Virus record (IMG/VR): IMGVR_UViG_2756170199_000003
Span: 64,001 to 128,000 of that record
Source of the DNA: a virus
Taxonomy: Duplodnaviria > Caudoviricetes
Direction: 5' to 3' (one strand)
DNA length: 64,000 nt
The notes under the pieces are model-generated. The model saw nothing but the letters and a program-made list of their open reading frames with translations, had not been told where the DNA came from and did no database searches. Position numbers and translations under genes: made by a program. This document shows positions 1,905-63,260 of the stretch, in pieces (the first letter of the stretch is position 1; each line of letters opens with the position of its first letter).

Positions 1905-2363
1905 CGCACATCGGGTACTTCAGGCCAGACCTGCAGGCACGGCGGGGCACAAGCAGGCAAGCCAGCGCTACGGATCGCCCTGCGCATTACCGGTTCGCGC
2001 AAACCACGAAATAGCCAATCAGGAACGGCACGAAGAGTAGCGTGCCCACGACAAGTCCCTTGATCTGGGATGCGCGTTCATCATCTCTTTTGCCAACCTC
2101 GTTCGCCACAACAGGCTGGTCTGCCACGTGTGTTTCCGCGGCAGGCGCAAACGAGTACAGCGTGTGAACGCGATCAAGCATGCGGGAGTGATCAAGCAGC
2201 AGCGCAAGCGGACCCATGGCGGTTCTCCAACAGAGGAATATCGAGACAGAGAACAGAATAAATGCAAGGGCTCATCTTTGAGCCTGGACAAATCTGAAAC
2301 ACATTGCTGCGTGACATTCCGTCGCATTGCCGTCTTCAGATCGTGCCACTACCGGGAGATCAC

Positions 2364-3089: not shown

Positions 3090-3339
3090 CCACTCGGGCA
3101 GTTTATGTTTCATTGCGGGGCTGCTTCATTACCTCGTGTTACCTCAATATCCGCCATTCGGCTCGACGCACGTGAATACCTCAAGCAGCGCCGACGATTT
3201 GCACCCTTGCAGCACACATACGCTTTGCCGACGTTTGCTTACACATCGAAAAGGTTTTTCATCTCGTGACGCCTTACGCTTCATTCACGGCCTGAGTGCC
3301 GCGCTGCACGAAACAGAACAACACTTTGCGGGAAACAGA

Positions 3340-18643: not shown

Positions 18644-20905
18644 GTGATCCTCTTCCTCGATGATTTCAGCCTGTATCCGCGCGCCATCATCGACACCGAA
18701 ACCACCAACGAGAGCTTCGTGAGGCTCGCGGCGATCTACCGCAAGATGGGGATACGTAACCACGCGTTTCTCCTCGCGCTGCTCAATCCTGATCTGCAAG
18801 GCGTGGACCCATTTTCTCCCGATCTCACGCTCGATCAGATGGCGGCGATCGCCGTCGAGTGCAAGACCAATCCCTTCTATTTTTTCCGCGAGGTATGCCG
18901 CATACCCATGAGCGGCAGCACCGAAGCCGTCCCGTTTCAGGCCAGCCGCGGCAACATCGCGCTCATCTGGTGCTTCTTCAATCACCTGATGATCTTCCTC
19001 GTGATGATCCGGCAGACCGGTAAGTCGGTGGCGGCCGATACGCTCATGGTGCTGTTGCTCAACTTCATCTGCGTGAACACCGAAATCAACCTGCTCACGA
19101 AAGATGAAATCCTGCGGCGCACCAACGTGGACCGCATCAAGAAGATCATTGATGAGTTGCCACCCTACCTGCAGCAGCGCACCCGGCAGGACACGCACAA
19201 CGGCGAGGAAATCAGCGTCAATCGCCTTGGCAACAAGTACAAGACGCACGTCCCGCAGGCGTCCGAGAAAGGCGCCTACAAGGTGGGACGAGGCCTCACC
19301 ACGCCGGTCATCCAGATCGACGAAGGACCGTTCCAGCCGAATGTGAGCATTGCCGTACCGTCCGCACTCGCCGCGCGCAATGCAGCAGTCGACGCGGCCC
19401 GCGCGAATGGTTCGCCTTATGGCGTCATTTTCACCAACACCGCGGGCAAGATCGACGACCGCGACGGCGCCTTCATCTATCGCATGCAGGGCAGCGCCGC
19501 ACCGTGGAACGAGAAATTCTTCGACGCTGCAGACGCCCAGGAGCTCGAGCAGCTGGTGCGCAAGTCCTCCCACGGCGAGAAAACCCCCGACGGCAGCCGG
19601 CGCAGTGTCTATCGCGTGAACATCACGTTCGGCCACCGACAGCTCGGCAAGACCGACGAATGGCTACGGGAAAAGATCGAGGAAGCTGCGGTCAGCGGAG
19701 ACGACGCGAATCGGGACTTCTTCAATATGTGGACCTCCGGCACGCAGACGCATCCCCTGCGACGCGAAGTCCTCGAGCGGATTGTGGAATGCCGGCAGGA
19801 TCCAAAGTTCACCGAGATCAGCAAGGAAGGCTATATCACGCGCTGGTATGTGGAAGAGCACGCGATCGAGGCAAGAATGCGTGCCGGGCGCTTCGTCATC
19901 GGACTGGACCCGTCAAACGCCTCCGGTGGTGACGACATCTCGCTCGTCGCGCTCGATATCGACACACTTGAGGTCGTCGCCGCGGGCACCTATAACGAAA
20001 CCAACATCCTGCTTTTCTGCAGCTGGGTAGCGCAGTGGCTGATCCGCTGGGACACCACGACGCTGGTCATTGAGAACCGCAGTCTCGGGCAGGCCCTGAT
20101 CGACTACCTGCTCTACATGCTGCCAGGACACGCCATCGATCCGTTCCGGCGGCTCTTCAACCGGATCGTCCAGGAGTACGACGAGCTGCCGGCCCGCTTT
20201 CACGAGATCCAGGTACCGATGGGACGACGCCCCACCGACATCTACACGCGATACAAGAAGGCGTTTGGCTTCACGACATCGGGCGGTGCTGGTATCTATT
20301 CGAGAAGCGAGCTCTATTCGGCCTCGCTCCAGCTTGCCGCCAAACGCGCGGGTGCGCTCAGCTACGATCCGGTGCTGATCGAACAGATCGCCCATCTGAC
20401 CACACGCAATGGCCGCATCGATCACGAAGAAGGCTTGCATGACGACATGGTGATCGGCTGGCTGCTGGCCCACTGGCTCGTCACTCGCGGCAAGATGCTG
20501 GCGTTCTACGGGATCGACGACCGGCGCATTGGCTCAGCACTGCACGTGGGCTCGCGCGAGAGCGTCATTGATCATGCGATACGCCGCGAGCAGCAGGCGA
20601 TCCAGGAGGAGATCCGGCGCCTGTACGACGAACTCTCCCGCGAACCCAACGAATGGGTAGCCGCGCGCATTGAACATCAGATGCGCCTGCTCGACCGCCG
20701 CGTAGTCCTGCAGGAAGGTGAAATCTTCAGCATGGACACCTTGATCAACCAGGCAAAGGACAGGAAGCGGGAACGAAGACTGCAGCGTCGCACGGCGACG
20801 CCTCCTGCGGACCCAAGCCCCCCACCCCAGGGATTCTTCAGCGACATTCCGCCGGGCGTCACACCGGGCACCCCCGTGCGCACACTCAAACGTGGTGGCT
20901 GGTAA
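18644..20905 (+). CDS. terL: Terminase large subunit (phiKZ gp25-like)
   Basis: NPFYFFREV; Walker A RQTGKS; Walker B IQIDEG; nuclease motifs GLDPS and HDDMV. Confidence 0.93.
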   Translation: MILFLDDFSLYPRAIIDTETTNESFVRLAAIYRKMGIRNHAFLLALLNPDLQGVDPFSPDLTLDQMAAIAVECKTNPFYFFREVCRIPMSGSTEAVPFQASRGNIALIWCFFNHLMIFLVMIRQTGKSVAADTLMVLLLNFICVNTEINLLTKDEILRRTNVDRIKKIIDELPPYLQQRTRQDTHNGEEISVNRLGNKYKTHVPQASEKGAYKVGRGLTTPVIQIDEGPFQPNVSIAVPSALAARNAAVDAARANGSPYGVIFTNTAGKIDDRDGAFIYRMQGSAAPWNEKFFDAADAQELEQLVRKSSHGEKTPDGSRRSVYRVNITFGHRQLGKTDEWLREKIEEAAVSGDDANRDFFNMWTSGTQTHPLRREVLERIVECRQDPKFTEISKEGYITRWYVEEHAIEARMRAGRFVIGLDPSNASGGDDISLVALDIDTLEVVAAGTYNETNILLFCSWVAQWLIRWDTTTLVIENRSLGQALIDYLLYMLPGHAIDPFRRLFNRIVQEYDELPARFHEIQVPMGRRPTDIYTRYKKAFGFTTSGGAGIYSRSELYSASLQLAAKRAGALSYDPVLIEQIAHLTTRNGRIDHEEGLHDDMVIGWLLAHWLVTRGKMLAFYGIDDRRIGSALHVGSRESVIDHAIRREQQAIQEEIRRLYDELSREPNEWVAARIEHQMRLLDRRVVLQEGEIFSMDTLINQAKDRKRERRLQRRTATPPADPSPPPQGFFSDIPPGVTPGTPVRTLKRGGW

Positions 20906-29068: not shown

Positions 29069-29872
29069 CTAGCGCGGTCCACCGATCTGCATGCGCAGCG
29101 CCCTCAACCATCGCTCGCCGTCGTTCATGATCGCGATCTTCGCCCACTTCTCCTTCAGGTAATCCTCGTAGTTCTGTTCCGCATCGGCGTAGCTGTCGAT
29201 GATCTCCTTGATCTTGCCCAGATTCTGGCCCCCCCTCAGTTCACCGATGTCGAGCTGCACCGTGTAGGTGTTGTAGATGTAGGACTTGACCGCGTACTCG
29301 ACGAGCTTGCAGAACGCGTGATAGCTGCGCAGCTGGATGTTGTTCAGGTTCTCGTCGTTGGCCACGATGCAGCGCAGGTATGAGTTCGAGGGCACCGTCA
29401 GCACGTCGCGCACGAGCACGACGTTTTCGCCAATGAGTTCGATTCGCGCGGTTGAGGTGATCGGCACCATGCCCATCGCATCCACCACGGCATTGCCGAC
29501 CTGCAGCATCGTGTTGGCCTGGTTAAGCGCCGCGATGCCCACCGACGAAATACGCGTTGGATCGGCGAACGACACATTCAGCACCGTCAGAATGCTCCGA
29601 CCATTGGTTCGTTTCTTCGGAATGCGAAACACGGTGTCAAAGGGCGTCTCCCCGCGCTGGCCACACCCGTCGAGCAGGATCCAGACCTCCGTACCGCCCA
29701 GCAGGTTGCAGTCGATCAGCACACGCGGGCGAACCACCAGACTGATGATCTGGTCTTCGATACCTGCGGTCGTGTCCCGCCAGTATTCCTCCCGCCTGAA
29801 AAACACCACGTGCAGCACCTCTGGTGGAATCCGGTAACGCACGTCGAACACACTTTTTGCGATGGCGTTCAT
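29069..29872 (-). CDS. Conserved jumbo-phage protein (phiKZ gp42-like)
   Basis: MNAI...YRIPPEVL, RPRVLIDCNLLGG, AVKSYIYN, YADAEQNY motifs. Confidence 0.7.
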   Translation of the reverse strand: MNAIAKSVFDVRYRIPPEVLHVVFFRREEYWRDTTAGIEDQIISLVVRPRVLIDCNLLGGTEVWILLDGCGQRGETPFDTVFRIPKKRTNGRSILTVLNVSFADPTRISSVGIAALNQANTMLQVGNAVVDAMGMVPITSTARIELIGENVVLVRDVLTVPSNSYLRCIVANDENLNNIQLRSYHAFCKLVEYAVKSYIYNTYTVQLDIGELRGGQNLGKIKEIIDSYADAEQNYEDYLKEKWAKIAIMNDGERWLRALRMQIGGPR

Positions 29873-29948
29873 AAAGGGGCCTCTTTGCCCCTGCCGCGTC
29901 CTGTGCGGATGGGCAGCGGCCCGAATCAACTTAAAGAAAAGACGGCGA

Positions 29949-29956
29949 TATATCAC
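29949..29956 (+). promoter_or_regulatory. TATATCAC putative phage early promoter
   Basis: Recurrent motif about 50 bp upstream of ATG30009. Confidence 0.6.
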
Positions 29957-30008
29957 CGATGCGGAGTCGATCAGATCTCCACAACATTTCTTTACGGAGG
30001 ACCACGAC

Positions 30009-30350
30009 ATGAACCATGCGATTCAGGAAATGTTTTCCAGTTGTGTGAAGTATTTCGACGCGCTCAGCTATCTGGCCGAACGCAATGCCTCGGTGAGTTT
30101 TGCACGGGTCAATCTGGGCGAGTACTCGGTCGTCCACCTGCGCTGCGGAAACGCCACCGTGATTTCGAGCGAGATCATTCGCGTCTTCGACCGGGAGGGT
30201 AACCCGGTGGATAAGGTCACGCTGCCCTACACGCAGCAACGTGCCTGGTACAAGCGACTCGTCGTCGAGGAAGGCTTTCCCGCTGCGAACCTGATTGAAC
30301 TTCTCGATGAACGCAGTCGCGATTATTTCTGGCGGGAGCGGCTGCAGTAG
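30009..30350 (+). CDS. Hypothetical early protein
   Basis: GGAGG RBS; follows the promoter motif. Confidence 0.6.
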   Translation: MNHAIQEMFSSCVKYFDALSYLAERNASVSFARVNLGEYSVVHLRCGNATVISSEIIRVFDREGNPVDKVTLPYTQQRAWYKRLVVEEGFPAANLIELLDERSRDYFWRERLQ

Positions 30351-35907: not shown

Positions 35908-36423
35908 CTACCTGCGCGCACCTTGGGATGGACTGGTTTCTTTACGTGAGGGACGCGACGCTTCGCCTGAAGCCAGCATCGTGCCGCGGCAGCCTAGCGC
36001 ACCGCACCGGCAGGCATACTGCGCGCGCGTGGCACGGGACGTCCGTACCGGCAGCTCCAGCGCGTAGTCGATAAAGAGCTCTTCGCCTGCGGCAATGCTG
36101 CGCGTCGCCTCGATATAGACGCGCCCGTTGTCCTCTACCGCCTCGCAGTTCGCGCTGCAGGCGTGATTGAGCCATCGCACCGTGTTACCACCGCGGCCGC
36201 CATCGATCACCCGCCCGTCGGCAAGTCCAAAGAGAAACGTGTGGGCTTCGTGCTCGCGTTTCGAGTGAAAGCGCATCGCCTCGGTCCAGCTTGTCACAAA
36301 CCCCTTGTATTGCGCGATGCGGTCACCTGCGGCCAGTGCCCGCTGTGCAAACACCCCCCTGCCGTGAACTGGCGAGTGTCGCACCACGAACCGCCTTACG
36401 TTGGACGTCAGTTCCCGTTTCAT
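35908..36423 (-). CDS. SET-domain protein-lysine methyltransferase with post-SET cysteines
   Basis: HGRGVFA, RWLNHACSANC, GEELFIDY, CRCG..GCRG. Confidence 0.92.
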   Translation of the reverse strand: MKRELTSNVRRFVVRHSPVHGRGVFAQRALAAGDRIAQYKGFVTSWTEAMRFHSKREHEAHTFLFGLADGRVIDGGRGGNTVRWLNHACSANCEAVEDNGRVYIEATRSIAAGEELFIDYALELPVRTSRATRAQYACRCGALGCRGTMLASGEASRPSRKETSPSQGARR

Positions 36424-36470
36424 TTTTACCTGCCGTGCTCATGCTGTGTCAGCCTGGATGGAGAGCAGAC

Positions 36471-38669
36471 ATGGGTCGCGCAACCGATAACCCCTTTGTC
36501 CTGCCAGCGCGCCAGTATAAGAGAGATATCGACGTCCTGGAGCACTACGTTCGACAGAGTGTTCACTATCTCGCGACGATGACCGGCGCGCCACTTGCCG
36601 AGTGTCTGAGGTTCGTCCAGTCGGGACTCTCTCCCGGTGGCAGGTTCGCTTTTCAGGATCCCGGTGTCACGTATCTTCAGCGCCTTGAGAACGGCGATCG
36701 TGAGCTCAGGAACAGTACGCTTCAGGCCTTTCTGTCCTCATCCATCGGACAGCACGAACTCATCGCGCCGACGTTCACGACGTACGTGCATCCGCAGGTC
36801 AGGGAGTCCCTGCTTACCGGCTTTATCGGCGCCAACAAGGTGCAACGCGGAATTGCCAAGCGCGCGATGTTCCAGGCCCGCAGCGACGGCAATACGCTGC
36901 TCGAGATCCTGAAGGACAACGAGCAGACGAACATGAAGCTCGCGAGCAACGCCTGCTCCGGGGCACATGTTTCGGCCTCGACGCCGCTCTTCAATCTCTC
37001 CGCTCACTCTACCCTCACCTCGAACTGCCGCGTGACGGCGTGCTACGGCTCCGCGAACAACGAGAAGCTCCTTGCAGGCAACCGGCACTACTGGTCGCCC
37101 GACGTGGTGAAGAACAACATCACATCGATCCGTCTCGCCACCGACTACGAAGCACTCGAGGCCGCCATGCAGCGTTACGGGATCCGTCATCCGGAAGTCG
37201 GCGAGACGATGGACTGCATCCTGCGCTCGACCCGCTTCTATTTCCGCGATCCGGCTCATCACCAGCTGATCGGGGAGTACGTCAGCAAACTCACGCCCAT
37301 CGAACGCAGCGCGTTTGTCTATACAGGCGATCTCTATCACCTGAGGCTCCATAACGACGCCGTTATCCGCACCTTTATCGGGAAGCTCGCGACGCGTGTC
37401 GGCGTCGTGCATCCCACCCCCGATGCCATTCTTGCCGCGGCATTGCCAGAGGTCACGGCACTCGCCGTTCAGCTATGCGCGCAGGAGATGCGCGGCAGGA
37501 AGCTCGATGGCGTTGCCGGTACGCCCGCTCAGGGTATCGTTGCCTCCACCGTCGTCAATATCCAGGCAACGCTTGCCGAATACCGCGATTTCATCCGAGC
37601 GTTCTTCGTCACAAAAAGCGTGCCGGCGTCGGTCGCAGCCTTTCCCGAAAGCATCCGGCGCGTGGCGCTCATGGGTGACACGGACTCAACACTTTTCACC
37701 GTGCAGGACTGGGTGATCTGGTACAACCACGGGCGTCTTGGCTTCGACGCGGCCTCGCAGGCCGTGGCGGCCGCACTCGTCTTTCTCGCGTCGATGAGCG
37801 TGGCTCATCTGCTCGCCAGGATGTCGGCAAACTTCGGCGTCGAGGAAAAACGCCTCTTCGACACCGTGATGAAGAACGAATACCGGTTCGTGATGTTCAC
37901 GCCTACACCGGTTGCGAAACACTACTATGCCCTGATCGACTGCCGCGAGGGCCATCTCTACGTCGAACCTGAAGCGGAGATCAAGGGCGTGCATCTGAAG
38001 TCATCGAGCGCACCACCTGGCATTACCGCACGCGCCAAGACACTCATGATCGACATCATGAAAGCGGTTGCACGCGAGGAGAAGCTCTCGCTCACCCGTA
38101 TCCTCGGCGAGATTTCGGCAATCGAACACGACATCATCGCGTCGGTCATGGAGCGCTCAAGCTGCGAGTATTTCCGCATCGGCCAGATCAAGCCCGCAGA
38201 AGCCTATACGCTGGCTCCCGAACGCTCCATCTACGCTCACTACCTGTTCTGGAACGCAACCTTCGGGCCACGTGACGGTATCGCAGGCATACCGCCGTAC
38301 ACTGCCGTCAAGATTCCCGTGGACATGGGCTCGCCCACGCGCCTGCAGACGTGGCTTACCACGATGCAGGACCGGACACTTGCGGCTCGTCTCGCTGCCT
38401 GGCTTGCCGCGCACGGCCGACGCTCACTCACGACGCTTTACGTGCCACTCGAGATAATCGAGGCGCACGGCATTCCGCCCGAAATCCTTCAGCGTGTAGC
38501 AATCAGGAAGCTCGTCAAGGACACCATGAAGACCTTCTATCTTGTGCTCGAGAGTCTGGGTGTGGGAATGGAGAACCGTCAGATCACGCACCTTGTGAGC
38601 GATGACTATCCACCTGCTGCCCCGAAATCAGCGACGACATCCGAAGGGACAGCCCCAGTGACGTCATAA
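36471..38669 (+). CDS. Family-B DNA polymerase, polymerase-domain half (phiKZ gp50-like)
   Basis: KLASNACSG (KxxxN motif), HSTLTS, MGDTDSTLF, MKNE, KHYYA, EIKGVHLK. Confidence 0.88.
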   Translation: MGRATDNPFVLPARQYKRDIDVLEHYVRQSVHYLATMTGAPLAECLRFVQSGLSPGGRFAFQDPGVTYLQRLENGDRELRNSTLQAFLSSSIGQHELIAPTFTTYVHPQVRESLLTGFIGANKVQRGIAKRAMFQARSDGNTLLEILKDNEQTNMKLASNACSGAHVSASTPLFNLSAHSTLTSNCRVTACYGSANNEKLLAGNRHYWSPDVVKNNITSIRLATDYEALEAAMQRYGIRHPEVGETMDCILRSTRFYFRDPAHHQLIGEYVSKLTPIERSAFVYTGDLYHLRLHNDAVIRTFIGKLATRVGVVHPTPDAILAAALPEVTALAVQLCAQEMRGRKLDGVAGTPAQGIVASTVVNIQATLAEYRDFIRAFFVTKSVPASVAAFPESIRRVALMGDTDSTLFTVQDWVIWYNHGRLGFDAASQAVAAALVFLASMSVAHLLARMSANFGVEEKRLFDTVMKNEYRFVMFTPTPVAKHYYALIDCREGHLYVEPEAEIKGVHLKSSSAPPGITARAKTLMIDIMKAVAREEKLSLTRILGEISAIEHDIIASVMERSSCEYFRIGQIKPAEAYTLAPERSIYAHYLFWNATFGPRDGIAGIPPYTAVKIPVDMGSPTRLQTWLTTMQDRTLAARLAAWLAAHGRRSLTTLYVPLEIIEAHGIPPEILQRVAIRKLVKDTMKTFYLVLESLGVGMENRQITHLVSDDYPPAAPKSATTSEGTAPVTS

Positions 38670-38701
38670 GGGGCCGCTGTCGCGGCCCCATGGAGTAGTC
38701 A

Positions 38702-39025
38702 ATGAAAACGCCATTTGCGTTGCGCCGACGCGAGGACTGGGAGAACACGCCGATTGAAACGGAAGACCTTCCCGATGGCTGGACCGACGTGCTGATCCAG
38801 CTCATCGAAACCGGGCCCGTGGACGACGGTGACATCGTCAGCAAGAACGCCCGCGATGCGCTGATCGAGCGTGGCTTCGCCGACAAGGTCATCATCGACC
38901 AGTTCGAAGCGGGTACCTGCGCAACCTACTACGGACGCGAGCTGTACTGTCAGCTCGTCGACGAATGGGGACTGGCCGAAGCTATCGCGAAACGTCATGC
39001 CCAGTCCATTCTCAAACGTTACTGA
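38702..39025 (+). CDS. Hypothetical protein
   Basis: GGAG RBS; GPVDDGDIVSKNARDALIERG winged-helix-like segment. Confidence 0.6.
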   Translation: MKTPFALRRREDWENTPIETEDLPDGWTDVLIQLIETGPVDDGDIVSKNARDALIERGFADKVIIDQFEAGTCATYYGRELYCQLVDEWGLAEAIAKRHAQSILKRY

Positions 39026-39037
39026 ACGCATACGTAC

Positions 39038-40159
39038 TCATGCATTTACCGTGCGCACGGCCACGCGTGTCACGTTTGCCTTGCGCTCAATCGTGTCGAG
39101 CTCATCGAGCACGGACTGGCGCGTGAGCGCGTCCATCACACCGTCAAACAGACGCTCCTGTCTCCAGCCGAGAAATGTACGCTCAACCAGATTGATTTCG
39201 GACTGGTTGCGTGTTCGCGGTGAACCCGCCGTCGCGCTCAATACAAAATCAAGCATCGGCAGGCGCGCGATCGCGAGTGCCCACATAACCTGTCTTGTCG
39301 GCGCCATGTCAGGAAGATGCATGGCCTCTTCAAGGTTGCGGCGCGCTGCCACCGGCACGCTTTGTAACACCCCCACGAAATTCTTGCCTTGCCTCTCCAG
39401 GTTCACTACGATTTCCTCATAACAGCGATCGAGTCGTGTCGCTACGTCGACCAGGGCAAATGGATGCTGCCGGGTCGACCACCCTGCAGGTACACGCGCC
39501 TGCACACAGCGAATCCGGTTGAGGAGAGTCTGATCGAGTTGACTGAACAGCATGTTGGGTAGCACGAACCCGTGAACGAACATCGTGAGGGATTTTTCAT
39601 CCACGCCACCCGTCTTTCTTTTTTCCTCTTCACGAAAGGCGCGATACTGAACCATCAACATGGGCAAATTGATAGCGATCACCGCCATTCCTGTTTCCGA
39701 CCCTGCAAACCGGCCATCCGGGAGATTCATTCCCAGATCGCTGCCCGAATGTCTCAGCACGCGTAGAGGTGTGGCATTGCGCCAGTCGCGATGGGCAAGC
39801 ATGAGATCAAAATACTCTGTATGAACAACGAGAATCTCATCGTGGCCCGCGCCGTAGAACACGCCATTCCAGATTTTCCCACGGGATATTGAGGACGTCA
39901 TCTTCATTGCCGTCGACAGATTGAGCGCCATCGCGTCGACATTGGCATGGTAACGCTCGAGCGTGAGCGCGAGCGGCACATCGACGCTCTGCACCAGCCT
40001 GACCACAGGGTGATCGCTTCTGACTGCCCCCGCAGCATGCCGGTAGTAGCGGATGACCTGCCCGAGATTGCGGCGCAGGCCCGCGCGCACGGCTTGCCAC
40101 GCCCCTGGCACCTGAATGCCCTGGAGCGAGCGTGGTACCAGGTTGAATAACTTGTGCAT
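39038..40159 (-). CDS. Conserved jumbo-phage protein (phiKZ gp52-like)
   Basis: Antisense gene between the polymerase and chmA, as recalled for phiKZ; VLRH, INLPMLMVQYR, VLPNML motifs. Confidence 0.65.
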   Translation of the reverse strand: MHKLFNLVPRSLQGIQVPGAWQAVRAGLRRNLGQVIRYYRHAAGAVRSDHPVVRLVQSVDVPLALTLERYHANVDAMALNLSTAMKMTSSISRGKIWNGVFYGAGHDEILVVHTEYFDLMLAHRDWRNATPLRVLRHSGSDLGMNLPDGRFAGSETGMAVIAINLPMLMVQYRAFREEEKRKTGGVDEKSLTMFVHGFVLPNMLFSQLDQTLLNRIRCVQARVPAGWSTRQHPFALVDVATRLDRCYEEIVVNLERQGKNFVGVLQSVPVAARRNLEEAMHLPDMAPTRQVMWALAIARLPMLDFVLSATAGSPRTRNQSEINLVERTFLGWRQERLFDGVMDALTRQSVLDELDTIERKANVTRVAVRTVNA

Positions 40160-40480
40160 GGTTCGATATATCGAGTGAAAGAGATTCGCCCATAAAATTT
40201 GAGCGCCCCGGTGCCGCCAGGCGTGGCTGGCACGCGTGTACGGGTTGCTGCCCGCTCTACCGGAGAAGGCAAGTGCCGGAATTCTTCATCGCGTAAGAAT
40301 TTACTGCGGCCGCCCATATCCTGTGGAGAGGACGTTCGCATTCCCCTCCATCTGGCTGGCTGAATGAGCCCGGCCAGGGAATGCCGTGCCATGTCTCTTC
40401 ATGTTGACGTGATTTTTCGTTCCAGCAGTGCACCTTGTGCGCGTCGCCGGATGTGGATCTATTCAACGGAATTTCACTGA

Positions 40481-40488
40481 TATATCAC
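40481..40488 (+). promoter_or_regulatory. TATATCAC putative early promoter of chmA
   Basis: Recurrent motif about 70 bp upstream of the chmA ATG. Confidence 0.65.
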
Positions 40489-40555
40489 CCACTTGTCATT
40501 AGCTAGGAATGCTAACGACCGTATACGTTATTCAACCTTGACGAAAGGAATTGCC

Positions 40556-42565
40556 ATGGCAGTGAAACTCCCTTCAAACCACGCCGGTGACGAGCCGGGT
40601 GCAGACTCGAGCATGGCCCAGGCGTTCAGCCAGGCCCAGCAGACGGAGAGCGAGCGGTTCTCGTCGCAATCCGGAGCCGCAGAGGCACGCGAACGTCCAG
40701 CAGGCACGGGTGGCCACTTTGCATTTTCGAGTTCGACCCATTTCCTCGAGACCGTGCTCCCGGCCAATTCGGAGAGCGAGGTTCTCACGAAGATCCACGA
40801 CATGCTCAAGGCGCGGTTCGTATCCTCAAGCCCCGAGCACGAACTCACACTCGTGCCGGTCAATCGCGATGACACCACGCAGCTCGAATTTTCGGTCATG
40901 GTGATCGCGTTGCGCCACAAGTCATGGCCCGAACTTGGTGTCGCCTACTACACCATGATCCTCGAGGGTTCGGCACCTGAACTCCCGCCGATCCTGCGCT
41001 CCGAAGGCGGCGAAACATTCGATGATCCGCGCTTTCCCAGCGACATGAACACGGCGGCGCTTGACGCCGAGGTCCGCGAGCGGCTGATGCGCGTCTTTCC
41101 GCAGCATCCGCTGTGGAGCGCTGGCGTGGGTGTAGTGCGGCGCGACTTCAACCCGGAAAACAGGGAGCTGGCCCACAGGCTGGCCAAGCGCGTGAGCGAC
41201 GCGTGTGTGCTGGAGCTCAAGCGACACCAACCAGGCGGATTCCACGATCTGAACCTGGTCGAAGCCGTCGGCAGCGATACGCTGGTCATCCGTCCGACCT
41301 TCGGCAACGGGCAGATTTACGACGTCATGGGTCATCCGGTCCGCGGTGATATCGAGATCCTCAGTACGATTCCGGGCAAACAGGTTCCTGGTCAGCCGGA
41401 GCTGACGATGCGCGACACGGTCGTGTCGGTGGTCCACGGTTTCGTGGATCTCGTCTGGTCGCCTGAAGAACCGCAGATCCTGCCGTACATGCAAACGCCC
41501 GCGGCCGCCGGCGTCAACTCCGCGCTTCGCCGGAAGTACTACCCGCGCTTTGTGATCACAAACTGCGGCGCCGCCCAGGTGCCGACGCTGGGCGGCCAGT
41601 TGCTCTCGATCATGATAGCGACCGCGTGTCTGTCCCCGGGTCTGTGGGTGGAAGCTTTCCGTCCCCCACAAGGTCATGCGAGCGGCAATGAGGTCAACTG
41701 GAGAAATATCGGCGCCCTGAACATCGAGGCGAACCTCGAGAACGACCCGAGCGGCTACGGCACACCGCTGAACAGCATGCTCGACTCGTTCATCCGCGAG
41801 ACGGGCCCGAACGGCAGCCCGTTCCGCACGCTCATCGCCAACACCATCCGTGAAAAGCTGGTGGTCTCGATGGACATTGTCGAATGCGGTATCGAGTCGT
41901 ATCTGAGCGAAGTGCTCTATCTCGCCGCCGAGGGCAATTCAAGCAACAGCCGGCCGGCCAACATGCAGATCATCCAGTCGATGGAAGATCTGACAGACGG
42001 CCACTTCCTGCCGATTTACAACCGCCTCTGGCAGCAGGCCAACCCTAAGCTCAGCCTGCGGCCCGAGGACCGGCGTCTGGTCACCGACGAGTGCAACCGG
42101 ATTCTCAAGGGAACCCTCGTCTACGGTGGCGAACTGATGTCGACGGACTATGTGGACTACCTCGCGAACCTGAACGTCGCGGGTCCGAACAATCACGAGG
42201 ATGTCCTCACATGGTCCGATACCTTCTCGAACGTCGGCATCAAGCTCAACCAGCGCGTGGCCAAGCGCTCGAAGATCACCAAGGCGATCGCTGGCCCGGC
42301 GACCAAGTTCACCGCGGCAGCCCGCCGCGTCACACTTGCGAGCGACGTACTCGCCGCAGGGTTGATGGCGCTCGGCGAGCTCAAGCTGAACATGGTGTTT
42401 CAGTCAGCGGGGCTCGGACGGCCGCAGTACCAGCGTGCGGTCAATCCGTTCCTCGACGCCGCTGCGCTCGATCCGAATGTCAACGCCGGCTTCTTCGGCA
42501 GCGGCTTCGGGACTCCGTCGGCGCAATACGGCAACCGTGCGGGCTTTAACCGCTTCATGTCCTGA
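40556..42565 (+). CDS. chmA: Chimallin, phage nuclear shell protein (phiKZ gp54-like)
   Basis: 669 aa directly upstream of the nvRNAP beta' gene; recalled motifs GFVDLVW, YYPRFVIT, QLLS, NIGALNIEAN, DYLA, ARRVT; flexible N-terminus and aromatic/Gly-rich C-terminal tail. Confidence 0.85.
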   Translation: MAVKLPSNHAGDEPGADSSMAQAFSQAQQTESERFSSQSGAAEARERPAGTGGHFAFSSSTHFLETVLPANSESEVLTKIHDMLKARFVSSSPEHELTLVPVNRDDTTQLEFSVMVIALRHKSWPELGVAYYTMILEGSAPELPPILRSEGGETFDDPRFPSDMNTAALDAEVRERLMRVFPQHPLWSAGVGVVRRDFNPENRELAHRLAKRVSDACVLELKRHQPGGFHDLNLVEAVGSDTLVIRPTFGNGQIYDVMGHPVRGDIEILSTIPGKQVPGQPELTMRDTVVSVVHGFVDLVWSPEEPQILPYMQTPAAAGVNSALRRKYYPRFVITNCGAAQVPTLGGQLLSIMIATACLSPGLWVEAFRPPQGHASGNEVNWRNIGALNIEANLENDPSGYGTPLNSMLDSFIRETGPNGSPFRTLIANTIREKLVVSMDIVECGIESYLSEVLYLAAEGNSSNSRPANMQIIQSMEDLTDGHFLPIYNRLWQQANPKLSLRPEDRRLVTDECNRILKGTLVYGGELMSTDYVDYLANLNVAGPNNHEDVLTWSDTFSNVGIKLNQRVAKRSKITKAIAGPATKFTAAARRVTLASDVLAAGLMALGELKLNMVFQSAGLGRPQYQRAVNPFLDAAALDPNVNAGFFGSGFGTPSAQYGNRAGFNRFMS

Positions 42566-42577
42566 TGTTCTTCAGGC

Positions 42578-42611
42578 CCGGCAGGGGAAGTTTCCCTGCC
42601 GGCTTTTTTTT
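42578..42611 (+). terminator. Intrinsic terminator after chmA
   Basis: CCGGCAGGG/CCCTGCCGG stem followed by T8. Confidence 0.85.
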
Positions 42612-42717
42612 CCGCGCAGGTATTTGAGCCTGTACGGCCTGTGCATAGGTTTTTATTGAACCGGGTAATCCAGTGCAGGTACCCCCTTCATGCGCACCAC
42701 CCGCACGGAGAAAGAAA

Positions 42718-44223
42718 ATGGGAATCAGCCTTCGCCCGATCGACCACGACCAGGTCTTCCATTACCGCACGTCCCGGGAACCCATCATCGTCAACGATCT
42801 TCCCGACACCACAACCGAAGAAAAGAAATATGTCGATAACCTCATCTTCACGCGCTACGATCTCATCCACTCCGACCTGCTGTCGAACATCCCCTCGTGT
42901 GCCTGCGGCAATACGCTCGGGGTAGACAAGCTCGGCAACGGTCACGACATTCGCGCGGTCGTCTGCCCGGACTGCCACACCGAAGTCACCGCGCCGTATC
43001 AGGGCGATCTCGAACCGCTCATCTGGATGCGCGCGCCCAAAGGTGTGAAGGCGCTCATCAAGCCGCGCATGCTGACGATGCTCAGCGAGCATTTCCAGAA
43101 AAACAGCTTCGACGTGATCCGCTGGATCTGCGATCGGACGTACAAGGCGCCCGTAAAGGAGCCGCCGGTCATGGAGGCGGTCCGCGCCTCAGGCCTGCCC
43201 CGCGGTTACAACCATTTCGTCGAGAACTTCGACGCCATCATGGCGTTCCTGTTCAACCTGAAGCTCTATCCAAAGAAGGAACTTGCGCCGCTCAGGGAAT
43301 TCATCACGCGGTACCGAAACGTCATCTTCTCCCAGTATCTGCCGCTACCGAACCGGTCGCTGCTGGTGCTTGAGGAAACGAACCACGCGGCTTACACCGA
43401 TTGCACCGCGCCGATTGCAATCGACGCGATCCGCATGATGGTCGGGATCGATTCGCCGGCGGCGGTGTATTCCGACATCGTGCGTGAAAACCGCACGATC
43501 CGCATGCTCTTCCAGACGGCCGGCTATTACGACATCACATTGCGGGAGTTTCTCGCGTCCAAGTCGGGCGTGTTCCGCAAGAACGTGTTCGGCACGCGCT
43601 GCCACTTCGCTTTCCGTGCGGTCATCAGTTCGAACACAGGCCCTCACGACTACTCCGAGGTGCATATTCCGTGGAGTGTCGGGGTCGTGGTGTTCGAGTT
43701 GCATCTGAAGAACTTCCTGATGCGCGAAGGCATGACGCCGTGGGAAGCGGAAACGTACCTGAACGCACACGTCAACCAGTACAGCGAGAAGCTCGATGCG
43801 TATTTCAAACGCCTGATCGAAGAGTCGCCCTGGCCTGGGATACCGGTGACCGTGCAGCGAAATCCGAGCCTGCATCGTGCCAGTATCCAGCTGCTGTTCA
43901 TCACGCGCGTCACCCGCGACGTCGCGCAGCCGACAGTCGTATTCAGCATTCTCGACGTCACCGGGCCCAACGCGGACTACGACGGCGACATGATGAATCT
44001 CGTGCTCCCCATCGATCACGTCCTAACCCGCGAGCTTTATCCCCTCATGCCGCACCAGAGCGCATTCAGCATGAACGAGCCGCGTGCACTTTCGAAGAAT
44101 CTCTCGATGCCAAAGACCGTCGTGCTGACGATCAGCAACTGGATGCACTGGCCAGAGTCGGAGCTGGACGCACCCGACCCCGCAGTATTGCAACGCATGG
44201 CGCTCATCCCCGAGGCGGCATGA
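42718..44223 (+). CDS. Non-virion RNA polymerase beta' N-terminal subunit (phiKZ gp55-like)
   Basis: Zn finger CACG...CPDC; KSGVFRKNVFGTR, RAVI, QRNPSL, catalytic NADYDGD. Confidence 0.92.
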   Translation: MGISLRPIDHDQVFHYRTSREPIIVNDLPDTTTEEKKYVDNLIFTRYDLIHSDLLSNIPSCACGNTLGVDKLGNGHDIRAVVCPDCHTEVTAPYQGDLEPLIWMRAPKGVKALIKPRMLTMLSEHFQKNSFDVIRWICDRTYKAPVKEPPVMEAVRASGLPRGYNHFVENFDAIMAFLFNLKLYPKKELAPLREFITRYRNVIFSQYLPLPNRSLLVLEETNHAAYTDCTAPIAIDAIRMMVGIDSPAAVYSDIVRENRTIRMLFQTAGYYDITLREFLASKSGVFRKNVFGTRCHFAFRAVISSNTGPHDYSEVHIPWSVGVVVFELHLKNFLMREGMTPWEAETYLNAHVNQYSEKLDAYFKRLIEESPWPGIPVTVQRNPSLHRASIQLLFITRVTRDVAQPTVVFSILDVTGPNADYDGDMMNLVLPIDHVLTRELYPLMPHQSAFSMNEPRALSKNLSMPKTVVLTISNWMHWPESELDAPDPAVLQRMALIPEAA

Positions 44224-44282
44224 GCATAACTGAATCAACCAGGATGAATGAACATGTCTGAACGTAATGTGAGGAGGCGGCC

Positions 44283-44906
44283 ATGATGCTAACCGCAAGC
44301 GGCGACAACGAATTCGACGCGCTCGTTTATGGCGCCCGCAAACATCCGGGCACGATCGCCTACCTGCAGAAGCAGCTGGAACCCTTTCGGAGTGCAGGCG
44401 GATTGACCGAGTTCGGAAGGCAGTTCGCCGATACCGCTCGCAGTCTCTACGAATCGTTCAACGGATCCGAAGCCATGCGCCTCGCACGTGCTGCTGTACG
44501 TCGCGCAGGTGCGCTCTACATGAGCGACACGATCCAGTCGATCTGGGAACTCGGCCGTCTGCAGAACGCCCCCGTGGCGATGCAGCGCTGGATCATGGCG
44601 GAGCCTGAAACCCGCAGGCTCTATCAAGAGCAACGCTGTGATGGCTTTTCCGACACTTATATCGACGTCGAGCCTGGTGCGATCGGCGAAGAGCATTACG
44701 ACTGGCGCCGCATCCACGACGGCATGGCACAGAAAACTGCCGACGGCAAGCTCGTCTTCGAACAGTACTGGGAGCCCCTGAAGGAGGGCGATCGCCATCT
44801 CGAACTCGACGAGCAGAGCGACATCATCGCTACGCACTCGTTTGCCAACGCGCATGCGCTTGCTGGCAGGGAAGATCACACCAGCAATGAGGGCGGCATG
44901 CTATAG
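44283..44906 (+). CDS. Conserved jumbo-phage protein (phiKZ gp59-like; possible import factor)
   Basis: LQNAPVAMQRWIMAEP, GFSDTY, HYDWRR motifs; synteny. Confidence 0.65.
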   Translation: MMLTASGDNEFDALVYGARKHPGTIAYLQKQLEPFRSAGGLTEFGRQFADTARSLYESFNGSEAMRLARAAVRRAGALYMSDTIQSIWELGRLQNAPVAMQRWIMAEPETRRLYQEQRCDGFSDTYIDVEPGAIGEEHYDWRRIHDGMAQKTADGKLVFEQYWEPLKEGDRHLELDEQSDIIATHSFANAHALAGREDHTSNEGGML

Positions 44907-45008
44907 CCGCATTTTCATTATCCGGAAGGGCGTGCCTGTCCTTCCGGATCCGCACGTTCTTCCTTTTTTTCTCGCGCGCCCTATTCCGACTCATGCGCAA
45001 GACAGACC

Positions 45009-45016
45009 TATATCAC
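45009..45016 (+). promoter_or_regulatory. TATATCAC putative phage early promoter
   Basis: AGACCTATATCACC is identical to the copy at 55921-55934. Confidence 0.6.
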
Positions 45017-45075
45017 CTCTGTGGAAGCCGGAAAAGCCTCCGGCAACTCCATCATATCGGAGCGACAGACGCAAG

Positions 45076-45267
45076 ATGGCCCCATTCGCAAACGACGATA
45101 CAACGCTGACCGTTGCGGTCAGGACGACGTCGAGTGTTTTACACGTACTGCGCGCAAGTGATACAGAAACCTTCGTGCTTCCGGCTTTCATCCGTGACGA
45201 TGAAGCCGTCGCCATTTTCCACACCATCGAAGATCACGCCCCATTCTGCGAAATCGCGTTCAGGTAG
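45076..45267 (+). CDS. Small hypothetical protein
   Basis: ATG downstream of the promoter motif. Confidence 0.35.
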   Translation: MAPFANDDTTLTVAVRTTSSVLHVLRASDTETFVLPAFIRDDEAVAIFHTIEDHAPFCEIAFR

Positions 45268-45310
45268 CGCGTTATGCCCGTGCGGGCATTACACCGTCAC
45301 CGGAGAAAAT

Positions 45311-45634
45311 TTGAAATTCACTGAAATCCAAACGTTTGACGATCTTGCACACTGGTCCGTCCGGTGGGCAAACGATGAAGCAGCAATGCACAAGTTCGAG
45401 AAGTGTATGGCCCATCTGTGCCGACAACTCGAATCCTGTGGTGGTCTGGAGCGCGTGGTGTTCAGCGCGACTATCGGTGAGCTGTTTGCCGACACCGGTG
45501 AATCGATACACGCGTACTTCTTCGAATTTAACGACCTGATCTACAGCTTCCCTTACCACCTGCAGACCGGGAGATTTTACGACGCGCGTTATATCTCGCC
45601 CGACGTTCCGGGCATGAACAGACTGATCCAGTAA
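45311..45634 (+). CDS. Hypothetical protein
   Basis: TTG start with GGAG RBS; protein-like composition. Confidence 0.4.
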   Translation: MKFTEIQTFDDLAHWSVRWANDEAAMHKFEKCMAHLCRQLESCGGLERVVFSATIGELFADTGESIHAYFFEFNDLIYSFPYHLQTGRFYDARYISPDVPGMNRLIQ

Positions 45635-45685
45635 GCCGGCTCGCCCGGATTTGTTCGATTGGTCCGGTTATGAGGGGCGTCCATC

Positions 45686-46144
45686 ATGACCACACCCGCT
45701 CCGACACTCTCAACCGCCGGCTGGATCGTCTCGGCCCAGCAGAAGGCGGACCGACTGATGGCCTGGCTTTACGCGACTCAGGCCAACCAGTCCTACATCT
45801 TCAATGGCAATGTGACGAGCCTGCAGTATCTGATCGCGCAGAACACGGGCAATATCCCGGCGACCTGCTCAGCCTTGCAGAACGCGCTGACCCAATTTTT
45901 TTCCCGCTACTACGACCTTGCCCGCGTGCAGGTCGCAAGCGACGACGTGCTCAATGGGAACCAGAGCAGCCTCATCACGCTGTATGTGTACGCAGAGCTC
46001 ACCGAGGATGGCGTCGTCTACCCCCTGACCGGCCTCATTGAGCTCTCCAGCTCGAAACTGCTGCGCGTGATCGCGCTGAACAACAGCGGCGCATCTGGCA
46101 CGCAGGTGGCCGTGCAGCACGTCCTTCAGGACATCACTTCATGA
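45686..46144 (+). CDS. Conserved jumbo-phage protein (phiKZ gp61-like)
   Basis: PTLSTAGW...KADRL...QANQS...SLQYLI motif; synteny. Confidence 0.6.
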   Translation: MTTPAPTLSTAGWIVSAQQKADRLMAWLYATQANQSYIFNGNVTSLQYLIAQNTGNIPATCSALQNALTQFFSRYYDLARVQVASDDVLNGNQSSLITLYVYAELTEDGVVYPLTGLIELSSSKLLRVIALNNSGASGTQVAVQHVLQDITS

Positions 46145-46857
46145 ATACCGAGAACACCGAACCGGCTGACGGACCTCCGAGCTATGGCGACCCACATCGC
46201 GTGATTGGCGCAGACGGCTGCGACGCGCAGCTGCGTGCCGAGGCGCCCATACCCGGTTGGGTCGAAAGTTTCGGGCGGCACATCGAGCGCGCAATTTTTG
46301 GCGGGCTGATGCAACAGCAGCACGAATATCTGGAGCATCGGCGCTTGCCTCACACCGTGCGCACCTGGGAAATCAGGACCACGCCCTGGCTGCTCGAGGA
46401 CGGCTACATTCTCGTATTGACCGAGTTCCCGATCGCGACCGAAACGTGCTGCGTGGTGGCGTTCACACCGGTCTACGCCGACGGGCGTACGGCAATGGAA
46501 CGCAGCACGGCTGACGATGCCATTGAACTGAATGTCATTGACTTCGAGGTTTTCGTCTATCAGGAACGGGGACGCACCGCATTCGAAAATGCCCGCATGA
46601 TCCTGCACCCGCATTACATCGCGGAGCTGAAGCGTCAGGCGTTCGCCCTAAGACTTCAGTACATCCAGTTCTTCTACTTCACCCAGCTCGTACCGAAAGT
46701 GCGCGAAGCCTTCGAGGATCCGCATGGTCATCTGGAATCATTTCTCAACCGCATGCGGCAGACAGTTTCCCAACAACACGCCACTTCACCGCCGTCAACC
46801 GCGAACCATGATGACTCAACAGGTGGCCCGACTTTCATCGATCAGGATTCCACGTGA
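46141..46857 (+). CDS. Hypothetical jumbo-phage protein
   Basis: Translationally coupled ORF. Confidence 0.55.
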   Translation: MNTENTEPADGPPSYGDPHRVIGADGCDAQLRAEAPIPGWVESFGRHIERAIFGGLMQQQHEYLEHRRLPHTVRTWEIRTTPWLLEDGYILVLTEFPIATETCCVVAFTPVYADGRTAMERSTADDAIELNVIDFEVFVYQERGRTAFENARMILHPHYIAELKRQAFALRLQYIQFFYFTQLVPKVREAFEDPHGHLESFLNRMRQTVSQQHATSPPSTANHDDSTGGPTFIDQDST

Positions 46858-47492
46858 AACCAACTTCAGAAGTTCCTTCAACTGAAGCGCGCGTTGCACC
46901 AGCTGCTACGCATCCGGGCAATTTCATCTGCAGCGTGGCGCAGTCCCTGTGTGAAATTTCCGCCGAGGATGTCGCAAAACTTCCCGAAGACCAGTTCGTC
47001 AACGTTTTCCTGCCGCTGCTCGCAGGCGATACCGAACTACCTTATCCCGCGACGATCGCCGACTGGATATCGATCGCTGGCAGCCCTTACAAGTGCGTCG
47101 ATGTATTTGATAATTCAACGGGTGAAATCCTGTTTCGCGTGCCGCCCTTTTTCGATTATCACGGCGTAAATCCTGTCAGGGACATTAGCAAACGCGGCGG
47201 CGTAGACAGACCCGCCCAGCCCGCTTTTACCGACATCATCGCAACCGCCGCGAATCTCGCCGGTCTTCACGCCAATCAGGCGCGGGCCTTCGTCGAGCAG
47301 TCGTTGCGCTCGCGCGCGCATCTCATGAACAGCAACGTCCTGCTCGCGCGCCATGTCCTGCAGTTCAACGCCATCCTCAAACGCTACGGGCGCAAACCGC
47401 TGTTTGCCGAATCGGAACAGGCGGCCATTGCTGCACGGGACGCGACAGCGCGCGATTGCCACGCAGCACCCGACGTATATGAGGACTTCTGA
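46854..47492 (+). CDS. Conserved jumbo-phage protein
   Basis: LPEDQFVNVFLP, WISIAGSPY..VDV, LFRVPP, ILKRYG motifs. Confidence 0.6.
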   Translation: MKPTSEVPSTEARVAPAATHPGNFICSVAQSLCEISAEDVAKLPEDQFVNVFLPLLAGDTELPYPATIADWISIAGSPYKCVDVFDNSTGEILFRVPPFFDYHGVNPVRDISKRGGVDRPAQPAFTDIIATAANLAGLHANQARAFVEQSLRSRAHLMNSNVLLARHVLQFNAILKRYGRKPLFAESEQAAIAARDATARDCHAAPDVYEDF

Positions 47493-48594
47493 TATCCACG
47501 TCGCTGTTCTCAGCGATATCCATCTCGGCAACCGACGCACACCTACCCGAGACATCATCCGCAATCTCGACGCCGCCTTCCCTGATAACGGGGAAACCGC
47601 CCAGCTTGATCTGATCTGTCTGGCAGGCGATGTCTTCCATACGCTCTTCACGCTCAACGATCACGACGTTCTGGAAATCGACTTCTGGATCTGCCGGCTC
47701 CTCACCCTTTGCAAGAAACACGACATCATCCTTTACGTGGTTGAGGGAACCCGCAGTCACGACTGGGAACAACTCGCGCGTTTCGACGCGATTAACCAGT
47801 TCGCTGGCATTGGCGCGAAGCTCCGGTACGTGAACCAGATCAGCCTCGAGTACGAACCTTCGCTCGACATCTGGGTGGGCTGCGTGCCGGACGAGAGCGC
47901 ACCGACCACTGATCAGGCGCTGGAACGCTTCATGCAGCTCATGAAGGCAAAGGGAATTGTTCAGGTCGACCTGATGTTCATGCACGGCAGCTTCGATTTT
48001 CAGGTTCCGGCTGTCTCACGCACACAGAAGCACGACTCGAAAGCATGGCTGGCCATTACGCGGTATCTGGTGTTTGTGGGCCATGAACATATCCATTCAA
48101 GCTTCGAGCGCATCTACGCCCAAGGGTCGTTCGACCGGATTGCCCACGGCGAGGAAGGACCGAAAGGGCATCTTCGTGCCATCCTGCATCACAACGGCGA
48201 ATACGAAATCACTTTCGTCGAGAACACCGGTGCGCGACGGTACATCACGATCGCCTGCACTGATCTCGGTGTGGAAGACGCGTTGCGAACAATCGATGCC
48301 CGTCTGCGCGAGCTGCCCGAGCATTCCGCCGTGCGTATCGAGGCGAATCACGACCATCCGCTGCTCGCCGACATGGATGCACTCGTGCGCCTCTACCCGT
48401 TTTTCAGCTGGAGCAAAAATCCGCTGCATGCGGAGAACGAAGCGCTCACGACATACGACGAGGACGATGTTTTCGAACCCATCACGATTCACGCCGGCAA
48501 TATCCTGCAGCTCGTAAGCGAACGCATGATCGCCGCGGGCGTCTCCCCCACTGTGCTCTCACTCGCACAGCAAAAAATCCAGGAATGCATGTGA
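47479..48594 (+). CDS. SbcD/Mre11-like metallophosphoesterase nuclease (phiKZ gp65-like)
   Basis: SDIHLG, AGDVF, EGTRSHD, MHG, GHEH, GSFDRIAHGEE. Confidence 0.88.
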   Translation: MRTSDIHVAVLSDIHLGNRRTPTRDIIRNLDAAFPDNGETAQLDLICLAGDVFHTLFTLNDHDVLEIDFWICRLLTLCKKHDIILYVVEGTRSHDWEQLARFDAINQFAGIGAKLRYVNQISLEYEPSLDIWVGCVPDESAPTTDQALERFMQLMKAKGIVQVDLMFMHGSFDFQVPAVSRTQKHDSKAWLAITRYLVFVGHEHIHSSFERIYAQGSFDRIAHGEEGPKGHLRAILHHNGEYEITFVENTGARRYITIACTDLGVEDALRTIDARLRELPEHSAVRIEANHDHPLLADMDALVRLYPFFSWSKNPLHAENEALTTYDEDDVFEPITIHAGNILQLVSERMIAAGVSPTVLSLAQQKIQECM

Positions 48595-62661: not shown

Positions 62662-63260
62662 GTGCACTCGATACGCTGTACCGCAATCGCGACCGGAATC
62701 AGGTGGAGTTTGACCGCTTCGAAGGCCAACTGTTGGAGCTTATCAGGAGGTCCCGTGAGAGCGGCCCATTGCCCGCGGCCATTCGTGAGTTGCGCGATGT
62801 TGCCTCATTGAAAGCTGGCGATGACGAGGCCCGTTGCGTCGCGGTACATCAATGCCAGAGGCTGCTGTGGTGGCTTGCCAAACCAGCCTGGCAAGTCGAC
62901 GAGGCGTGTGGACTGGTCTACGGGGTCGATCCCGCTGCGGAGAGAGATGGTGCCGCACAGGCTGGCTGTTATGCACTTGACGGACGGCTGCTGACCGCCG
63001 ATTCGTCAGAGGCGTATCACGCGTGGCTTCTGCTCGAGTCGCTCTATCTCCACATGGAAAACCGGATCGAGCAAGCCATCACCGTTTCCGATCTTTCCTG
63101 CGAAATCAGTCCGGCTGATTTCATCAACTGGTGCCACGATGAGGGCGTCGACACAAGCTACCTCCGGTTGATCCGCACACTTGTTGGTCTTGGCGAAAAC
63201 CGGCTTGTGGGACGGCTACCACTTGCTGACGTGCAGATCTTCGTCTCAGGCAGGCAATGA
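62658..63260 (+). CDS. Hypothetical protein
   Basis: GGAGG RBS and ATGA overlap; W..KPAW...EACGL..GVDP and PADFINWC motifs typical of mobile-element proteins. Confidence 0.6.
   Translation: MSALDTLYRNRDRNQVEFDRFEGQLLELIRRSRESGPLPAAIRELRDVASLKAGDDEARCVAVHQCQRLLWWLAKPAWQVDEACGLVYGVDPAAERDGAAQAGCYALDGRLLTADSSEAYHAWLLLESLYLHMENRIEQAITVSDLSCEISPADFINWCHDEGVDTSYLRLIRTLVGLGENRLVGRLPLADVQIFVSGRQ

Follow-up and report, generated by a model that had tools for sequence, protein, structure and literature searches.

The gene at the centre of this analysis, chmA, encodes chimallin (ChmA), the protein that walls off the DNA of phiKZ-like giant phages. The stretch analysed, referred to here as the window, comprises 64,000 nucleotides (nt), bases 64001-128000 of a single 138,880-bp record (IMGVR_UViG_2756170199_000003) that is classed in IMG/VR as a provirus with a CheckV completeness of 52%; the record is half of a phiKZ-like phage of about 275 kb. 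Positions 40556-42565 of the window very probably represent a functional chmA from a phiKZ-like jumbo phage of the Chimalliviridae type that is GC-rich and associated with Paraburkholderia-type hosts, arranged as a single-gene transcription unit. G+C content is 58-62% throughout the window. The gene and its flanking signals are the following:

40461..40489, plus strand: early-type promoter block ATTCAACGGAATTTCACTGA-TATATCAC-C, with the core TATATCAC at 40481-40488, 75 nt 5′ of the chmA ATG
40499..40515, plus strand: small hairpin in the 5′ untranslated region (5′-UTR), TTAGC, loop TAGGAAT, GCTAA, read directly from the sequence
40544..40549, plus strand: ribosome-binding site (RBS) AAAGGA, 6 nt 5′ of the chmA ATG, its AAGGA core kept in the sister locus L003 (IMGVR_UViG_2852743531_000003)
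40556..42565, plus strand: chmA, chimallin or major nuclear shell protein (product P0001), ATG to TGA, 669 amino acids (aa), with profile and structure matches
42578..42611, plus strand: intrinsic terminator, stem at 42578-42602 (11 pairs, 8 of them G-C, 3-nt loop), then C and T8 at 42604-42611

As read from the window sequence, the chmA frame runs through 669 uninterrupted codons with neither stops nor frameshifts. An initial annotation, made from the sequence alone, had described an intact 669-aa open reading frame (ORF) without frameshifts and with its own motif, an AAAGGA RBS and a T8 terminator; the frame proved open from the ATG at 40556 to the TGA at 42565 and all three signals are present, with only the start of the coding sequence corrected. 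A TTG start at 40493, used in a longer ORF-finder call, was dropped, as it lies 5 nt past the promoter motif and has no RBS. The N-termini of relatives are MAV or MAI and align to the ATG at 40556, which supports that start. The stem of the 5′-UTR hairpin is kept in L003, where the loop is changed (AGGACT), and in phiKZ a palindrome, CTAAG-TA-CTTAG, is found at a distance resembling that of the hairpin here; a scan of 40100-42750 against Rfam at E ≤ 1 gave no match. The terminator hairpin has a minimum free energy of -27.6 kcal/mol (z -2.9), and a hairpin followed by a T-run is also present after chmA in L003. The gp52-like gene upstream is divergent and chmA therefore needs its own promoter; because of this and of the terminator ahead of the next gene, a monocistronic chmA is the preferred reading. 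Between the gp52-like gene and the chmA promoter, the non-coding spacer (40160-40460) is about 85% identical to that of L003, above the level at synonymous sites, and includes long identical blocks (for example, 40369-40400) as well as single-base indels; it has no Rfam match.

Membership of the chimallin family is evident at the level of sequence. The product matches Pfam family PF25677 (Phikzvirus chimallin) over residues 184-605 with 37 bits, the cut-off being 27, and PHROG 4795, "nuclear shell protein", over residues 99-599 (E 1.5e-49). A sequence search of the PDB returned the Goslar chimallin (7sqt, E 1.6e-6) and phiPA3 PhuN, and an exhaustive HMMER search collected 681 chimallin-family representatives at E ≤ 0.001. 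An alignment of 144 out of these 681 served as input for AlphaFold2, which yielded a model with a mean predicted local distance difference test score (pLDDT) of 84.5 and a predicted template modelling score (pTM) of 0.82, where only residues 1-21, 27-51, 623-630 and 642-669 are of low confidence. When this model was compared with the PDB by Foldseek, the best nine matches were all chimallins (from Goslar, 201phi2-1 and phiPA3, with structures that include 7sqv, 7sqs, 8fne and 8igg) at E of about 1e-31 and target template modelling (TM) scores of 0.79-0.84, and the tenth was noise (E 2e-3, TM 0.09). The two profile matches and the Foldseek matches therefore place the product within the chimallin sequence family and fold, and with the gene order described below it is a chimallin by sequence family, fold and synteny. 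The comparison with ChmA by hidden Markov model or predicted structure that the initial annotation had proposed was thereby run, and it matched chimallin on both counts (PF25677; AlphaFold2 with Foldseek).

In chimallins, flexible N- and C-terminal segments tie the protomers into a lattice. Both tails are present in P0001 and are predicted by AlphaFold2 to be disordered (residues 1-51 and 623-669), as would be expected of segments docking on adjacent protomers. The C-terminal tail retains the family-conserved residues R627 and R666 together with the terminal GFNRF motif.

Selection on the gene was assessed at the DNA level against one relative, L003, with nonsynonymous (dN) and synonymous (dS) divergence calculated by the NG86 method. 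The chmA proteins of the two loci are 48.5% identical, and flanking genes with a match are 65-83% identical (DNA polymerase 82%, gp52-like 83%, RNA polymerase (RNAP) beta 79%). For chmA, dN is 0.41 and dS 0.87, compared with 0.10-0.22 and 0.68-1.41 for its neighbours (the short neighbour orf107 gave no dS value); dN/dS is about 0.47 for chmA and about 0.10-0.17 for the neighbours, ratios that are approximate as dS near 1 approaches saturation. At residues conserved in both loci (four-fold or larger codon families) the fraction of identical codons is 0.53 in chmA and 0.36-0.61 in the neighbours. At synonymous sites chmA has diverged as far as its neighbours; it is therefore as old as they are and was not swapped in. 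At the protein level it evolves about 3.6 times faster than they do, a finding that is new here.

A different origin for the low identity would be replacement of chmA by a distant allele through recombination in the conserved promoter and terminator flanks, so that the gene behaves as a swappable cassette. Flanks that are nearly identical around a coding part of 49% identity, next to neighbours at 79-83%, would suit such an exchange. It is nonetheless extremely unlikely: dS and the identical-codon fraction are equal to those of the neighbours, identity along chmA varies gradually from 0.27 to 0.67 without a sharp block, and the four members of the clade group together, apart from all other chimallins. 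Allele replacement was rejected as the cause of the low chmA identity on the equal synonymous divergence.

The ratio of chmA identity to polymerase and RNAP identity has a mean of 0.76 over 378 pairs of chimallin loci and is 0.60 for the pair formed with L003; it is 0.82-0.87 in five other close pairs with moderate divergence (polymerase identity 72-88%) and about 1.0 in three near-identical pairs. Pairs that include either of two other IMG/VR loci, L021 or L026, have chimallin identities far below those of polymerase and RNAP (ratio 0.54-0.62), so that episodes of fast shell-protein evolution may be recurrent among chimallins. A quickly built tree gives the four-member clade a stem of 1.01 changes per site, and the branch to P0001 and P0002 (a protein 92% identical to P0001) adds 0.49. 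The 51 differences between these two proteins avoid the family-conserved columns (permutation p about 1e-4), with 2 of them in 74 conserved columns and 1 of the 51 within the 58-residue C-terminal tail. The gene is thus under purifying selection, at an unusually high rate of change. That the shell protein is kept by selection, as had been proposed beforehand, agrees both with these differences and with the dN/dS of about 0.47 against L003; the value of about 1 that had been named as speaking against it was not found in that comparison.

Several points weigh against a functional shell protein of the usual kind. P0001 keeps 55 of the 73 columns that are at least 80% conserved, where the family mean is 64.8 (standard deviation 3.7, minimum 54), which puts it 2.6 standard deviations below the mean. 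P0001 and P0002 alone carry S and D in place of D529 and R531, residues conserved in 99% and 98% of the family. At 37 bits the Pfam score is modest (69 for the sister), and a dN/dS of 0.47, approximate as it is, is high for a structural core gene, so that some loss or change of function is possible. These features could be read as drift of chmA under relaxed selection in a mainly plasmid-living element, the gene being intact by chance and heading towards decay or a new role: its dN/dS is 3-4 times that of the neighbours, it ranks last but one in the number of family-conserved positions kept, two near-invariant residues are lost, the clade stem and the branch beyond it are long, and a plasmid cassette (see below) is present. 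Such drift is nevertheless very unlikely. Four diverged chmA copies contain no stops or frameshifts, dN/dS is clearly below 1, and the recent substitutions avoid conserved columns and the C-terminal tail; moreover, the fold is predicted with high confidence, the promoter, RBS and terminator are better conserved than the coding sequence, and the neighbouring lytic genes are strongly constrained. A chmA that is functional and fast-evolving is preferred here.

The promoter motif is non-randomly distributed. Seven copies of TATATCAC occur in the window, all on the plus strand, where 0.33 are expected, and none of 100 shuffles reached seven; the 138,880-bp record holds 8 forward and no reverse copies (0 and 1 for reversed-pattern controls), and the sister record 6 forward and 1 reverse (controls 0-1). 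Six of these eight forward copies in the 138,880-bp record lie between genes. The copies inside ORFs lie at 19832-19839, within a terminase-like ORF (18644-20905), and at 29949-29956, where a minus-strand gene (29069-30010) has its 5′ end; either could be an internal promoter or a chance match, or point to a wrongly called gene boundary. Around the chmA copy, 29 of 29 nt are identical in L003, although the chimallins of the two loci are only 49% identical.

The sequence TATATTAC is a predicted phiKZ promoter in PMC7058600 (Table 2), the discussion of which calls the related promoter of phage OBP early. In phiKZ, AATTTGAGATT-TATATTAC lies 80 nt 5′ of the gp54 ATG, and here TATATCAC lies 75 nt 5′ of the chmA ATG; the motif is likewise 41 nt upstream of gp68 in phiKZ and 45 nt upstream of the gp68-like gene here. 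The sequences adjacent to the promoter on its upstream side are also alike, sharing an ATTT-A element (AATTTCACTGA here, AATTTGAGATT in phiKZ). Among 41 other chimallin loci, TATATNAY is found within 200 nt upstream of chimallin in 12 (about 1.9 expected) and at 68-99 nt upstream in 9 (about 0.3 expected). A search for sigma-70-like promoters in 39000-45200 found none. The comparison supports reading the chmA promoter as the equivalent, by position, of the early promoter in phiKZ, with a shift towards G+C, and it shows conservation of the early-type promoter and of its place ahead of chmA between phiKZ and the present phage, the chimallins of which share 24% identity. In phiKZ, this type of promoter is read by the RNA polymerase carried in the virion. 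By analogy, early transcription of chmA here would be by a virion RNA polymerase, and the earlier suggestion that the gene is set up for early expression gains support, as far as its promoter is concerned, from this positional equivalence.

The genes on either side of chmA, and a conserved block ahead of one of them, are these:

36291..38669, plus strand: gp50-like DNA polymerase, the upstream syntenic anchor (PHROG 2927, E 1.4e-230; phiKZ gp50, 37% identity)
39038..40159, minus strand: gp52-like virion protein gene (PHROG 3938, E 6e-78; phiKZ gp52, 27% over 367 aa, E 3e-32)
42640-42670 (12150-12190 in L003): conserved block TTTTTATTGAACCGGG(T/C)AATCCAGTGCAG before the RNAP beta gene, in both elements
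42673..44223, plus strand: gp55-like non-virion RNA polymerase beta-type subunit (PHROG 2987, E 2.7e-137; phiKZ gp55, 33% over 427 aa, E 4e-73)

The position of chmA between gp52-like and gp55-like genes, given in the initial annotation, is confirmed by these matches to phiKZ proteins. In phiKZ, gp52 is annotated as a structural head protein. The gp55-like gene starts 108 nt past the chmA stop, beyond the terminator. The block that precedes it is a candidate gene-specific promoter or operator; it (TTATTGAAC) is not a repeated motif, with 7 occurrences in the window and 5 expected. Gene order follows that of phiKZ gp50-gp70: DNA polymerase, a small ORF, the gp52-like gene on the opposite strand, chmA, gp55-like RNAP beta, SbcD, and gp66-, gp68-, gp69- and gp70-like genes. 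A check of the approximately 52% complete record for the Chimalliviridae core set, covering polymerase, gp52, ChmA, non-virion RNAP subunits, gp68, gp69/PicA-like, SbcCD, sheath and terminase, found these genes and their synteny. Phage apparatus is also encoded in the form of a tail sheath, terminase, virion proteins and a set of fibre genes. The element is a full phiKZ-like phage and not an isolated relic. With the rest of the phage apparatus present, a nucleus-building phage is the natural reading, and the earlier view that the element probably still builds a nucleus gains support from its gene content.

Relatives and database searches bear on the source and the host of the element. One soil-metagenome run (X1) contains the stretch as short, identical contigs at a depth of 3-5, and the source is therefore a metagenome and not an isolate; runs X2 and X3 gave only short, unlike pieces, and no RNA run was among those listed. 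These runs are uninformative as to expression or copy number. Close ChmA relatives are encoded on contigs of 275-284 kb in Paraburkholderia isolate assemblies. A locus search with the single chmA protein found none in genome, viral or metagenome collections, and one with the chimallin alignment found 2 genome loci and 41 viral loci. A megablast search of 36000-48000 against phages gave no match, nor did tblastn of ChmA against 72,556 plasmid records.

Genes of another kind are encountered towards the end of the window and beyond it:

127246-130977 of the record (63246-64000 of the window and beyond; 246-3977 of locus L049), minus strand: plasmid-type rep-parB-parA cassette
133908-137499 of the record (6908-10499 of L049), minus strand: tyrosine recombinase of 459 aa (PF00589, 34 bits) and an adjacent 743-aa ORF

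For the Rep candidate (415 aa), the counterpart in 117 plasmids, almost all from Burkholderiaceae, is "Replication protein O", at 50-58% identity; the candidate has no Pfam or NCBIfam match and is identified solely by its likeness to annotated plasmid genes. ParB is 339 aa long, and ParA, of 413 aa, is RepA/SopA-like (E 2e-63). Between the two elements ParA is 98% identical (G000:C1:129739-130977 and G001:C1:138252-139487), compared with 71-83% for core genes and 49% for ChmA, which reflects either a recent exchange of the cassette or much tighter constraint. Among 15 ParA matches listed from the phage collection none is from a phiKZ-like jumbo phage, and the identifiable ones among those listed are known or suspected plasmid prophages such as PY54. 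As to the second locus, the 743-aa ORF has only a weak recombinase-like match (E 0.0015), and the pair could represent a mobile unit that was inserted, or serve in dimer resolution. A gene caller based on G+C at third codon positions picked neither ORF of the pair whole, and an SRAP peptidase gene is cut off by the end of the record.

Given the rep-parB-parA cassette, the phage may persist as a plasmid, and judged from gene content a plasmid-prophage lifestyle is plausible and somewhat favoured. The cassette suggests that a carried copy would be maintained in the cytoplasm in the manner of a plasmid. The main text of a 2025 Annual Review on nucleus-forming phages gives no example of a temperate one.

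It had also been proposed that a carried ChmA could in principle shield a plasmid from CRISPR and restriction. On this view, the carrier cell would produce ChmA, which would envelop the resident replicon. The presence of rep-parB-parA and the relatives on 275-284 kb contigs in Paraburkholderia isolates would accord with such a role, and chimallin shells are known to keep out DNA-targeting defences (PMC11797060). This is nevertheless very unlikely, and the proposal is left unsupported: no host-type (sigma-70-like) promoter was found in 39000-45200, the only recognisable promoter is of the early type that virion RNAP reads in phiKZ, and tblastn of ChmA found no chimallin in the 72,556 plasmid records. 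In addition, the element has a plasmid initiator and a ParABS system of its own, which would use cytoplasmic host machinery that a replicon inside a closed shell could no longer reach. Given the type of promoter, the absence of a host-type one from the region searched and the cytoplasmic partition system, chmA is most likely silent in the plasmid-like carried state and would not shield the plasmid.

For the functional shell gene preferred here, a course of events can be outlined. Entry of phage DNA together with virion RNA polymerase, or the start of the lytic programme, would cause the chmA promoter (TATATCAC with its upstream ATTTCAC element) to fire early. ChmA would be made in quantity from a gene with a strong RBS, and the terminator would separate chmA from the RNAP subunit gene. 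The folded core of ChmA, with its flexible N- and C-terminal tails, would then be expected to assemble into a lattice that encloses the replicating phage DNA.

More tentatively, and less likely than not, the element would represent a Paraburkholderia lineage of nucleus-forming jumbo phages that is temperate-like and maintained as a plasmid, the first of its kind. The shell protein would be the fastest-evolving core gene in this lineage, its change driven by selection for shells that do not mix between co-resident or superinfecting relatives, or by escape from a host sensor, and the gene would stay off during carriage for the plain reason that its promoter is read by the virion RNA polymerase only. 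Avs5 was considered as a shell sensor possibly driving chmA divergence and was dropped, as the Avs5 paper shows sensing of JADA and not of ChmA.

Overall, chmA is a divergent new member of a known family and forms an ordinary-looking transcription unit in an unusual phage. The locus extends the chimallin family to GC-rich soil Burkholderiaceae. The rate of change of the shell protein, 3-4 times that of the flanking core genes with synonymous divergence being equal, can be measured as a signature and may stem from incompatibility between phages or from recognition of the shell by the host. Should the rep-parAB cassette indeed make the element a plasmid prophage, it could be used to study how a phage with early genes dependent on a packaged polymerase passes from the carried state into the lytic cycle.

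Among the nearest known systems are the sister elements represented by WP_233875062.1 (P. adhaesiva), WP_184061217.1 (Paraburkholderia sp. HC6.4b and others) and IMGVR_UViG_2852743531_000003, which have the same locus, promoter and terminator; their ChmA proteins are 49-55% identical to P0001, although neighbouring genes are 71-83% identical. The closest isolated phage, Burkholderia phage FLC9, is the best match among 50,697 phage records and is very distant (30% identity over 95% of P0001). With the solved chimallins, namely 201phi2-1 gp105 (7sqq-7sqs, 8igg), Goslar (7sqt-7sqv) and phiPA3 PhuN (8fne), the predicted core of P0001 superimposes at the target TM scores given above, but the protein is 18-20% identical to them, its N-terminal tail is longer, and the near-invariant D529 and R531 are replaced.

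The phiKZ locus gp50-gp55, where gp54 is ChmA/PhuN, has the same fold family, the same gene order and the same N-terminus (MAV...) as found here. The two differ in that P0001 is only 24% identical to gp54 (over 462 residues), the promoter core is TATATCAC and not TATATTAC, no gp53-like ORF lies between the gp52-like and shell genes, and G+C is 60% in the genome here compared with 37% in the phiKZ locus. The gp55-like gene is unsplit here, being a 516-aa ORF the last 59 residues of which align to phiKZ gp56.1, whereas in phiKZ the HNH endonuclease gp56 separates gp55 from gp56.1. Finally, virulent chimallin-encoding jumbo phages have been reported to persist in Escherichia isolate assemblies (bioRxiv 10.1101/2024.12.31.630880), and like the Paraburkholderia relatives of the present element they are chimallin jumbo genomes inside isolate assemblies. 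Screening of those Escherichia phages for plasmid replication and partition genes gave no ParA and no cognate pairs, whereas in the element described here rep, parB and parA occur together.

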